A DNA stretch of 40,751 nucleotides from Escherichia phage HK022, in the sequence record NC_002166.1; one strand, written 5' to 3'. Shown in pieces: positions 7,217 through 10,898 of the stretch; the stretch's first letter is position 1; every line of letters begins with the position of its first letter. The notes under the pieces are model-generated. The model was not told the DNA's origin. It made no database searches and saw only the letters and a list, made by a program, of their open reading frames with translations. The position numbers and the translations under genes are program-made.

Positions 7217-7241
7217 CCACCGGCCTTGAGCCGGTTTTTTT
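7217..7241 (+). terminator. rho-independent terminator
   Basis: ACCGGC-cttga-GCCGGT hairpin followed by T7. Confidence 0.6.
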
Positions 7242-7257
7242 ATGACCGGAGATAACA

Positions 7258-7758
7258 ATGTCTGTATTGACGCAAGGTACGCAGCTCTTTGTGCTCGTAA
7301 AAGGCAAGGTGAGCGAAGTTGAATGTATCACTGCATTTTCACCCGGCAGCAATCCGGCTGACCAGATTGAAGACACCTGTCTTTCTGAACGCTTTGATCG
7401 CAGCTATAAGCGTGGTCTTCGAACGCCTGGCACAGCATCACTGACGCTTAACGCTGATCCTAAAAATACCAGCCACATCATGCTCTACAACCTGTCCATT
7501 TCGGACGACGAAGAGGATCAGGACCTGACCTTCGCGATTGGATGGTCAGACGGAACCGCATCGCCAACTGCGGCTGAAAATGGTGCATCCGGTGCAGTCG
7601 ATGGCCTGGTGCTACCTGATAGCCGCACATGGTTCGTATTCAAAGGCTATGTGTCCGACTTCCCGTTTGATTTTTCAGCAAACACGGTTGTTTCTACTTC
7701 TGCATCTATCCAGCGCTCCGGCTCTGCTGTATGGGTGCCAAAAGTCGTGACCCCATAA
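7258..7758 (+). CDS. major tail (tube) protein
   Basis: 166-aa ORF with GGAG RBS, positioned before the chaperone/tape-measure genes. Confidence 0.75.
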   Translation: MSVLTQGTQLFVLVKGKVSEVECITAFSPGSNPADQIEDTCLSERFDRSYKRGLRTPGTASLTLNADPKNTSHIMLYNLSISDDEEDQDLTFAIGWSDGTASPTAAENGASGAVDGLVLPDSRTWFVFKGYVSDFPFDFSANTVVSTSASIQRSGSAVWVPKVVTP

Positions 7759-7762
7759 AATC

Positions 7763-7785
7763 AGGGCGGCAACGCCCTTATTAAT
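7763..7785 (+). terminator. partial terminator after major tail gene
   Basis: AGGGCG-gcaa-CGCCCT hairpin followed by TATTAAT. Confidence 0.4.
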
Positions 7786-7796
7786 CAGGATTAATA

Positions 7797-8282
7797 ATGA
7801 AATTAACACTTGATGCACTCAAGGAGTCCGGCGCGTTTACCGGTCGCCCGGTTGAGAAAGAAATCACCTGGACGCAAGGCGATAAAAAAATCACCGCGAC
7901 CGTGTATGTTCGCCCGATGGGTTATCACACAGCAACGTCCGATGTGCTGGCTTTTGGTGGTAAGGTCGATGGTGTGGCAGGGCGTATCGCCGCATCCATC
8001 TGCGATGAACATGGTAAACCCATCTTCACCCCGGCTGACATTACTGGTGAGGCAGATCCTGAACGTGGTGCACTGGATGGCGGCCTGACGGTAGCACTGC
8101 TTCTGGCCATTCAGGAAGTTAACGATCTGGGAAAGACTTCGAGCTCAGCGCCGAAGACGAATTCTGGTGCGAGCTCGTCCTCAACGGAATCGGAGGCAGA
8201 ACAATCGCCGAAGCGCGGGAAGTCCTCTCATTCAAAGAGTCCCAACTCTGGGCAAAGTACCGGGAACGATACGGGAGTCTGA
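7797..8282 (+). CDS. tail assembly chaperone (lambda gpG analog)
   Basis: 161-aa ORF directly upstream of tape measure; contains slippery heptamer near its 3' part. Confidence 0.8.
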   Translation: MKLTLDALKESGAFTGRPVEKEITWTQGDKKITATVYVRPMGYHTATSDVLAFGGKVDGVAGRIAASICDEHGKPIFTPADITGEADPERGALDGGLTVALLLAIQEVNDLGKTSSSAPKTNSGASSSSTESEAEQSPKRGKSSHSKSPNSGQSTGNDTGV

Positions 8283-8458
8283 ACCCTATGTTGCGGGTTG
8301 AGTGGGGTGCCGGGCTGGTGAGCAGCATGATAGCCAACGTTAACAGAGACCCCAAGCGCCCACCATTCAACCCGACCGATTTCACACTTCACTTTACCAA
8401 AGTCAAAGCTGCTGATGGACCAATCTCGTTAGAGGAAGCCAGAGCCAGCTGGACATAA
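7797..8458 (+). CDS. tail assembly chaperone, frameshift-extended product (lambda gpGT analog)
   Basis: -1 frame is open from 8135 to stop TAA at 8456-8458 (107 codons, no internal Met-initiated ORF of 60 aa or more), giving a fusion of about 220 aa. Confidence 0.7.
8129..8135 (+). promoter_or_regulatory. programmed -1 ribosomal frameshift slippery heptamer G_GGA_AAG
   Basis: GGGAAAG in the 0 frame as G GGA AAG (codons 112-113 of the chaperone), the same heptamer used by lambda G/GT. Confidence 0.75.
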
Positions 8459-8477: not shown

Positions 8478-10898
8478 ATGGCTTCCAAATCACTGGGCAC
8501 GCTGACGATCGACCTGATTGCCAAAGTGGGCGGTTTTGTCTCAGGCCTCTCGCAGGCTGAGCGAGCTTCACAAAAATGGCGTAAGCAGGTAAAGGAGGAT
8601 GCCGCTGCCGCTGCAGCTGCCATGACCGGATTCGCAACAGCAGTCGGGGCTGCAGCCATCGGAGCCGGAGTGGCGGGGTATAACCTGCTCAAAACCACTT
8701 CACGTCAGATTACCGAATCAGACCGCTGGGCAAAGTCACTTAACATGTCCACGCAGTCCCTGTTAGCCTGGCAATATGCTGCAGAAAAAGCAGGTGTTTC
8801 CGGCGATCAGATGGCCGATATCTTTAAAGATGTCGGAGACAAAATCGGTGATGCCGTTCTTAATAAATCTGGTGAGGCGGTCGGTGCGCTGGACGCTCTG
8901 GGTTTGTCGGCTAAGAAACTGGCCGGAGAATCTCCCGACAAGCAACTCCTGGCTATCAGCGACGCACTGGAGAAAGTTAAGTCCAACGCCGAGAAGACTA
9001 CCATCCTGGAGAGTCTGGGTAATGACCTGTCAAAGATGCTGCCGCTCCTGGACAATGGCAGTGAAAAGCTGCGTCAGTATATGGATGCCGCGAAGAAGTT
9101 TGGTGTGGCGCCCGATGACGCAGATATTGAAAAGCTGGTCAGAGTCAACGCCCTGTTTGAGGATATGGAGACGCAGGTCAACGGCGTCAAAATTGAACTT
9201 GCTGCAGGGCTCGCCAGCGTAGATTTGAGTGGGCTCCAGAAGTCTATTGGAGATATGGGGGATGTATTTAAAGACCCGGCTGTTATTCAGGGTCTGACTG
9301 ATCTGGTTGGTGGGGTAGTGGACCTTGCCACCTGGCTGGTAAGGGTAGGAGCCGAGGCCGGAAAGCTGATAGACCAGTACAAAGGTGGGAGTTCGGTCGG
9401 CCTGAATGCCTCCATTCCAGAAATTGAACGGCGCATCAAGAACCTGAATGCAGATCTCGATGATAAAGGCATACTGGCGAGTTTCAACAGAATAGGTATG
9501 GACGTATCCGGTAAGGAGGCCGAAAGGGCTGAGCTCCAGAGGCGACTGGCCTTTTTGAGAAACTCCCAATCTACTCTACCGGAAATAAAACTGCCCGAGC
9601 CAGTCAAAACAAACTATACCCTTGGCGCCGGGGAAACAAACGGTAAGCCGCAAAAAAATACCTCTGGTCAGAAACTGGATTCAGCGTTTAAAAGCGCTGA
9701 GCGCAGTTACATGCGTCAGATTGAGCTGATCGATACCACCGGCAAAAAAACTGCTGTGGTGACCGAGCAGCAAAAACTGCAGTTCGATATAGCTGACGGC
9801 AAGTTGCAGGGGCTTAACGAAACCCAGAAGAAACGACTTGCGTCTCTGGCTCAGGAAGTTGATCGCCTTAATGCCGTCAAAAAAGCTAATGAAGAAAACG
9901 CGAAGGTAGCGGCGTTCGTGGCAAATCTGCAGGAGCAGAACGAGAATGCACGTGCAGATTTGGGCGTGGATATTCATGGGGCCGGACTCGGTGACAAGCA
10001 GCGTGAAAGGCTGAGGGAAAGGCTGAGTATAGAGCGCAGTTATCTCGATCAGCAGCGCGATCTGCAAAAGCAGTATCAGTCAGGAGATATCAGCCAGACA
10101 GTTTATGACCGCGAAACCCAGGCATTAAAGGATGCGCAAGCTGAGAGGCTGGGCATCCAGGAGGATTATTACAGTCAAATTGATGCGCTGCAGTCTGACT
10201 GGGTGACTGGCGCCAGAGACGGTCTCGCTGACTGGGTAGATGATTCAACTAACTATGCGACGCTGGCGGCGGACGCTATGAAAAGCGCGCTTTCCGGTAT
10301 CAGCAGCAATATCGTCGACATGCTCAACGGCAATAAAGCGAGCTGGAAAGACTGGGGTGTCAGTGTTCTGAAAATCATCGAACAGGTGATGGTTAACATG
10401 ATGATCGCCAATGCAGCCAGCTCGATAGGCTCATTGTTCGGTGGTGCCGCATCGTCTTCCGCCAGCAGCGGTACTGCGATTCAGTCCTACGGGGCGAGCC
10501 TGCAATTCAACGCCAAAGGCGGCGTTTACTCTTCTGCCGATCTCAGTCAGTACAGTAACTCTGTCGTCAGCTCTCCAACACTGTTTGCCTTTGCCAAAGG
10601 GGCCGGATTGATGGGGGAGGCTGGGCCGGAGGCTATTATGCCACTGACCCGCGCCGCTGACGGATCGCTGGGCGTGCGTGCTATGGGAATCTCAGGCTTA
10701 ACACCGGGTGGTAGTAGTGCTCCTCAGGTCAGTATTCAGATTGATGGCAATGGGAATACCCAGGCTCAGGCTAGCGGTGGATATGAGCAATTCGGGCGGG
10801 AGGTAGGTAGTTTTGTTGATCGGCGATACCGCGAGTTGATAGGCCGTGACCTTTCACCCGGTGGCGCGGTCTGGAATCTGGCAAAAGGAGGTCGGTGA
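8478..10898 (+). CDS. tail tape measure protein
   Basis: 806-aa ORF, Ala/Gly-rich N-terminal hydrophobic stretch, long coiled-coil centre, Gly/Ser-rich C-terminal part; GGAGAG RBS. Confidence 0.9.
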   Translation: MASKSLGTLTIDLIAKVGGFVSGLSQAERASQKWRKQVKEDAAAAAAAMTGFATAVGAAAIGAGVAGYNLLKTTSRQITESDRWAKSLNMSTQSLLAWQYAAEKAGVSGDQMADIFKDVGDKIGDAVLNKSGEAVGALDALGLSAKKLAGESPDKQLLAISDALEKVKSNAEKTTILESLGNDLSKMLPLLDNGSEKLRQYMDAAKKFGVAPDDADIEKLVRVNALFEDMETQVNGVKIELAAGLASVDLSGLQKSIGDMGDVFKDPAVIQGLTDLVGGVVDLATWLVRVGAEAGKLIDQYKGGSSVGLNASIPEIERRIKNLNADLDDKGILASFNRIGMDVSGKEAERAELQRRLAFLRNSQSTLPEIKLPEPVKTNYTLGAGETNGKPQKNTSGQKLDSAFKSAERSYMRQIELIDTTGKKTAVVTEQQKLQFDIADGKLQGLNETQKKRLASLAQEVDRLNAVKKANEENAKVAAFVANLQEQNENARADLGVDIHGAGLGDKQRERLRERLSIERSYLDQQRDLQKQYQSGDISQTVYDRETQALKDAQAERLGIQEDYYSQIDALQSDWVTGARDGLADWVDDSTNYATLAADAMKSALSGISSNIVDMLNGNKASWKDWGVSVLKIIEQVMVNMMIANAASSIGSLFGGAASSSASSGTAIQSYGASLQFNAKGGVYSSADLSQYSNSVVSSPTLFAFAKGAGLMGEAGPEAIMPLTRAADGSLGVRAMGISGLTPGGSSAPQVSIQIDGNGNTQAQASGGYEQFGREVGSFVDRRYRELIGRDLSPGGAVWNLAKGGR

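Follow-up and report, generated by a model that had tools for sequence, protein, structure and literature searches.

The lambda-type G/GT frameshift has had its place in the textbooks since 1993/2004; the chaperone frameshift of lambda reportedly goes back to work by Levin, Hendrix and Casjens in 1993 and by Xu, Hendrix and Duda in 2004, 2013 and 2014. The −1 signal of Escherichia coli dnaX consists of the heptamer A_AAA_AAG, a Shine–Dalgarno (SD)-like element on its 5′ side and a stem-loop on its 3′ side. At dnaX, ∼50% of ribosomes shift and then terminate at once (PMC5009743). In lambda, a few percent of ribosomes slip by −1 on the heptamer G_GGA_AAG, giving a gpGT:gpG ratio of ∼1:30; the G parts serve to bind the tape measure protein, and the T part brings in the major tail protein (PMC5009743, PMC3296357, PMC7618472). 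Lambda makes G and GT at a fixed ratio; tail assembly depends on both proteins, and neither is present in virions (PMC5009743). The same heptamer has been mutated in phage TP901-1 (PMC4493119).

Here, we examined the corresponding locus of Escherichia phage HK022 in the complete 40,751-nt sequence NC_002166.1 (hereafter, the window). Positions 7797..8458 almost certainly encode a gpG-type chaperone with −1 ribosomal slippage at 8129–8135 that gives a 220-aa GT protein. HK022 and lambda are alike in the heptamer (G_GGA_AAG), in the −1 direction of the shift and in the position of the genes, which are flanked by the major tail gene on one side and the tape measure gene on the other. The gene order in HK022 is major tail gene, G, T and tape measure gene, with two overlapping frames between the outer genes. 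The upstream neighbour on the + strand (7258..7758) encodes a lambda-like major tail tube protein (Phage_TTP_11, E 1.8e-65; phrog_158, major tail protein), and its counterpart in the HK140 record is annotated as ‘major tail subunit’. The downstream neighbour, also on the + strand (8478..10898), encodes the tail length tape measure protein (Tape_meas_lam_C; phrog_2854, E 1.9e-255). Shortly before the major tail gene, at 7219–7245, stands a terminator-like hairpin followed by a T-run; in HK140 it is annotated as a rho-independent terminator. Between the major tail gene and G, a GC-rich hairpin (AGGGCGGCAACGCCCT, 7763–7778) is present that has no T-run on the + strand and is flagged by the scan on the − strand only. 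Rfam and tRNA scans of the whole window found nothing.

The anatomy of the two frames can be read directly from the sequence. The G analogue, a tail assembly chaperone gene on the + strand, runs from its ATG at 7797 to 8282 and has a frame-0 product of 161 aa. Its codons begin at 8130 (GGA) and 8133 (AAG), so that GGGAAAG at 8129–8135 (+ strand) lies in the phase G_GGA_AAG; the sequence-only reading had thus assigned the heptamer to the correct frame. The −1 frame is closed by a TAA at 8120–8122 and is open from 8123, two codons 5′ of the heptamer, to the TAA at 8456–8458. This bears out the claim of 107 open codons, which is the number of sense codons counted from 8135 (109 if counted from 8129). 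The T extension accordingly occupies 8135..8458 on the + strand (107 codons plus TAA), and the GT fusion, join(7797..8135, 8135..8458) on the + strand, has 220 aa and a size of ∼24 kDa. Its junction peptide (VNDLGKDFELSAEDEF) reads VNDLGK-DFELSAEDEF, with the hyphen marking the junction. Within the G/T overlap (8123–8282), G_GGA_AAG is the sole in-frame heptamer of the form X_XXY_YYZ. The further claim that the −1 frame has no upstream ATG-initiated ORF of its own stands in part: ATG, GTG and TTG are absent from the −1 frame between 8123 and 8287, but the first start codon, an ATG at 8288, heads a 56-aa ORF in the ORF list (8288..8458, + strand) that equals the C-terminal half of T.

Domain homology was observed directly in both parts of the fusion. 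The G part matches Pfam family PF16459 (Phage_TAC_13) at residues 6–109, over the full length of the model, with 117.9 bits and E 2.7e-34 (curated gathering threshold 28.8 bits), as well as phrog_1749, ‘tail assembly chaperone’. The −1 extension matches PF06223 (Phage_tail_T) at fusion residues 146–215 with 35.2 bits and E 1.7e-8 (curated gathering threshold 25.9 bits), phrog_337 over residues 7–106 of the extension (fusion residues 120–219), and also phrog_5297. The similarity of the −1 product to T-domain proteins, on which the sequence-only reading had staked its case, is therefore present in both PF06223 and phrog_337. A search of solved structures with the fusion gave no match at E ≤ 1.

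The T extension family PF06223 is common to both phages, lambda T scoring 54.1 bits. In the comparison of the −1 product with lambda gpT that had been proposed earlier, this profile match was found, but direct pairwise similarity is weak, with BLASTP giving 22% identity over 55 aa (E 0.023) and hhalign against the single lambda T sequence a probability of 2.4%. For the G part, BLASTP against lambda gpG detected no similarity (E 49), and the lambda gpG profile PF06894 (Phage_TAC_2) had no match in HK022 G at E ≤ 0.01; the family of the G part is thus PF16459 in HK022 as against PF06894 in lambda. As pairwise similarity is weak to lambda gpT and absent to lambda gpG, the homology claim rests on the Pfam and PHROG profiles, and the HK022 G part is a functional analogue of lambda gpG without detectable homology. 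The two phages also differ in the frame-0 tail past the slip site, which is 48 codons long in HK022 and ∼6 in lambda, and in the length of the T extension (107 aa in HK022, 144 aa in lambda).

Conservation of the two-frame layout is likewise a direct observation. A tblastn search of phage genomes with the fusion returned 75 records, with coverage of at least 80% in 60 of them, from phages of Escherichia, Klebsiella, Pseudomonas (D3, PAJU2), Vibrio, Halomonas and Synechococcus; among the full-length matches listed, each aligns as two pieces, as two frames predict. We assembled a comparison set of 91 related loci (80 from IMG/VR, plus annotated phage loci), 90 of which have both domains, the one left out (L042, from IMG/VR) being a truncated contig without a T match. 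In all 90 loci with both domains (G identity 37–100%), the T homology is read in the −1 frame with respect to G, and in every one of them a single in-frame slippery heptamer occurs within the overlap. This heptamer is GGGAAAG in 87 loci, AAAAAAC in one (PAJU2) and CCCAAAG in two (Vibrio phages). The variants occupy the homologous position, A_AAA_AAC in PAJU2 (L089, 945–951) and C_CCA_AAG in the Vibrio phages (L090 and L091, 945–951). GGGAAAG is unchanged across 37 unique close relatives, and the heptamer is still kept at 37% protein identity. In Escherichia phage 733R5 (L084, 1309–1686), Klebsiella phage ST16-OXA48phi5.3 (L085, 1316–1783) and Synechococcus phage Yong-L1-251 (L087, 1345–1650), an additional ORF stands between T and the tape measure gene, where HK022 has none.

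The pattern of substitution changes frame at the heptamer, and this switch in constraint, too, is seen directly in the alignment. Among the 37 unique ungapped relatives, nucleotide diversity is highest at third codon positions of frame 0 as far as the heptamer and at those of frame −1 beyond it; the codon-phase switch falls at 8127–8135, and the frame −1 pattern holds in the 45-nt interval that begins at 8127 and in the later ones. In the overlap 8136–8279, the changes among these relatives amount to 335 synonymous and 56 nonsynonymous when read in frame −1, as against 24 synonymous and 361 nonsynonymous in frame 0, and the protein-coding frame from the heptamer on is therefore the T frame. 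Together with the gene position, the domains and the conservation in 90 loci, this switch supports the earlier identification of the site as the conserved tail assembly chaperone frameshift. The 48 codons of G past the slip site are Ser-rich and of low complexity, and the length of this frame-0 tail among relatives ranges from 16 to 151 nt. A functional role for the tail was considered and rejected on account of the 24 synonymous against 361 nonsynonymous changes and of the variable length; judged by its substitutions, the tail is without constraint at the amino-acid level.

The same data bear on whether T might be made solely as an independent 56-aa protein from the ATG at 8288, with no frameshift. 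That ORF does exist, the 56-aa protein appears in many database entries and is annotated in this way in several genome records, and its ATG is unchanged in the 37 relatives, with GGGAG/GGAAG ∼10 nt upstream. On the other hand, both the T homology (phrog_337, starting at extension residue 7) and the strong purifying selection in the −1 frame span the whole stretch from the heptamer to 8287, which has no start codon, and reach ∼50 codons to the 5′ side of this ATG; the T-family residues that are best conserved (W11, ELV 13–15 and GIGG 18–21) are also located upstream of it. Moreover, the annotated ‘T’ starts of the relatives lie at differing, non-homologous positions, and the conservation of the heptamer down to 37% protein identity counts against a start at 8288 alone. 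We therefore consider exclusive expression from this ATG very improbable, although the ATG, with GGGAG 10 nt to its 5′ side, could to some extent serve as a separate start for the 56-aa fragment alongside the frameshift product.

A still smaller probability, close to nil, attaches to the idea that the heptamer and the open −1 frame arose by chance, or that a single gene has been split by a sequencing error or a frameshift mutation (pseudogenization). GGGAAAG occurs 11 times in the window, five times on the + strand and six on the − strand, and the motif by itself is therefore unremarkable, as a chance origin would have it. Yet, the site is an outlier among the 47 in-frame X_XXY_YYZ heptamers found in the window, on either strand, within ORFs that are 100 aa or longer: their −1 extensions have a median of 13 codons, and at least 100 open −1 codons follow only the site at 8129–8135 and one artefact, a spurious ORF nested within the tape measure gene. 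The −1 frame of the G_GGA_AAG site also stays open beyond the frame-0 stop. Against both chance and error, the two-frame layout with one in-frame heptamer recurs in 90 of 90 loci from several genera, with differing heptamers at the homologous spot. Slippage of RNA polymerase, which some phage and bacterial genes use and which would give the same protein (PMC5009743), is just as hard to credit as the source of the fusion, since transcriptional slippage in bacteria is described on runs of nine A or T (PMC5009743) and the longest run here is three, and since the shift on the same heptamer in lambda depends on tRNA-Lys modification, a property of the ribosome (PMC3296357).

Ribosomal slippage on G_GGA_AAG may in HK022 be assisted by flanking elements. 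A candidate SD-like sequence, AGGAAG, lies at 8113..8118 (+ strand), 10 nt 5′ of the heptamer, a spacing that agrees with the 9–14 nt described for stimulators of this type at −1 shift sites (PMC5009743). Many relatives have AGGAGG or GAGGT at this position, and the element is absent from the Klebsiella phage and from one further locus of the set (L055); the AGGAAG sequence is also constrained by a conserved Q-E-V peptide. On the 3′ side, a candidate stimulatory hairpin (8140..8177, + strand; 7 bp + 8 bp, 6-nt loop) follows the heptamer after a 4-nt spacer. It has a minimum free energy of −24.1 kcal/mol (z −3.7), none of 200 shuffled sequences is equally stable, and of synonymous recodings that leave the peptide unchanged just 0.33% match its stability, which depends on codon choice. 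In the Pseudomonas D3 clade, a hairpin with a single G:C to C:G exchange is retained at this position, and of the 86 sites that vary in the clade only 2 lie in the interval from −14 to +67 relative to the heptamer. A very stable hairpin (−32.1 kcal/mol, z −6.3) is also found downstream of the heptamer in PAJU2.

The search for a downstream stimulatory structure, which had likewise been proposed, gave a stable predicted hairpin at 8140–8177 in HK022, but covariation is not significant. In a pair-count test on 31 diverse sequences, 81.3% of the cells were paired as compared with 80.2% in shuffles (24 of 500 as high), and RNAalifold recovered no consensus hairpin; we do not claim a conserved structure. 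Excess structure downstream of the heptamer was absent in lambda, in a Klebsiella phage and in several IMG/VR relatives, and in the downstream region of lambda 76% of recodings are as stable as the native sequence. HK022, with its candidate hairpin 4 nt 3′ and SD-like element 10 nt 5′, differs in this respect from lambda, which has no comparable downstream structure. With dnaX, HK022 would share a three-part layout, made up of the candidate SD-like element 10 nt on the 5′ side, an X_XXA_AAG heptamer read by the single tRNA-Lys, and the candidate stem-loop a few nucleotides on the 3′ side. It departs from dnaX in that the SD-like element is imperfect (AGGAAG), the hairpin spacer is merely 4 nt and the shift leads, presumably at a low rate, into a long −1 extension, whereas that of dnaX leads to immediate termination.

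Synonymous variation is suppressed around the slip site. Along the GT reading path, synonymous diversity averages 0.341, falls to 0.041 in the interval 8127–8170 (0 of 5000 permutations as low) and is 0.00–0.06 at codons 105–109; the zone of low variation extends from ∼8109 to 8185 (∼75 nt) and takes in both AGGAAG and the hairpin. This zone is the only material in the analysis that is even mildly new. The SD-like element and the hairpin at 8140–8177 hint at a tuning of the frameshift rate. The HK022 and D3 lineages may carry a selected, dnaX-like three-part signal (the SD-like element 10 nt 5′, the heptamer itself and, 4 nt 3′ of it, a hairpin of 15 bp) in place of the bare site that is usually described for lambda, a signal that would explain the 8109–8185 island and set a lineage-specific G:GT ratio; we regard this as possible, with the balance tilting against it. 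Among the loci of the set, identities of G and T to HK022 are discordant (L010, L049–L059 and others), with values such as 99%/92%, 98%/100% and 83%/65%. This suggests recombination at or near the slip-site region, and because of this discordance a conserved recombination junction could also explain the island.

By analogy with lambda, a frameshift in HK022 would proceed as follows. A minority of ribosomes on G_GGA_AAG (8129–8135) would move back by one nucleotide, with tRNA-Gly re-pairing from GGA to GGG and tRNA-Lys from AAG to AAA, and owing to this re-pairing the Gly-Lys dipeptide would be unaltered. The slipped ribosomes would then read the −1 frame to the TAA at 8456–8458 and complete the 220-aa GT fusion. 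In the subsequent assembly, the G part of both G and GT would coat the tape measure protein, whereas the T part would recruit the major tail protein, such that the tape measure becomes enclosed by the polymerising tube. A low frameshift rate would set a high G:GT ratio, and neither protein would remain in the virion. The occurrence of slippage in HK022, its rate and these roles in assembly are all modelled on the lambda system.

The product itself is already on record. An exact-sequence look-up identified the 220-aa fusion as AAF30366.2 (UniProt Q9MCU7), ‘tail assembly chaperone [Escherichia phage HK022]’, and the 161-aa G protein as AAF30365.1 (Q9MCU8_BPHK0); the two correspond to the deposited HK022 proteins gp13 and gp14 (AAF30365.1; AAF30366.2, Q9MCU7, NP_037675.1). 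Being identical to AAF30366.2, the frameshift product was deposited before and is not new, and the G-T −1 frameshift of HK022 is correct but ordinary and already known. The statement of the sequence-only reading that the extended product is missing applies to mechanical ORF lists but not to the literature or to databases such as GenBank. In the HK140 record, the genes are called ‘lambda gpG analog’ and ‘gpT-like’, with reference to HK022, and HK140_014, the 56-aa ORF, is annotated ‘forms fusion with gpG’. Many other database entries contain the 56-aa protein as ‘phage tail assembly protein T’, as ‘gpT-like’ or as hypothetical. HK140, mEpX2, mEp235 and RefSeq E. coli prophages (H69–H75) annotate the 56-aa ORF alone, and the HK022 record has the fusion; one locus of the comparison set (L001) carries the counterpart of the 56-aa ORF at 2589–2759. 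The DNA of HK140, mEpX2 and mEp235 is 99.6–99.9% identical to that of HK022, and the difference is one of annotation style and not of biology.

The practical value of the result lies in annotation: for the close relatives HK140, mEpX2 and mEp235, and likewise for E. coli prophages in RefSeq, the entries still show a 56-aa fragment or a ‘hypothetical protein’ where the 220-aa product belongs. In lambda, the G:GT ratio is essential for tails of correct length, which makes the frameshift site biologically important. The stimulatory elements, if true, would mean that different phages tune the same heptamer differently, a matter of interest to recoding specialists only.
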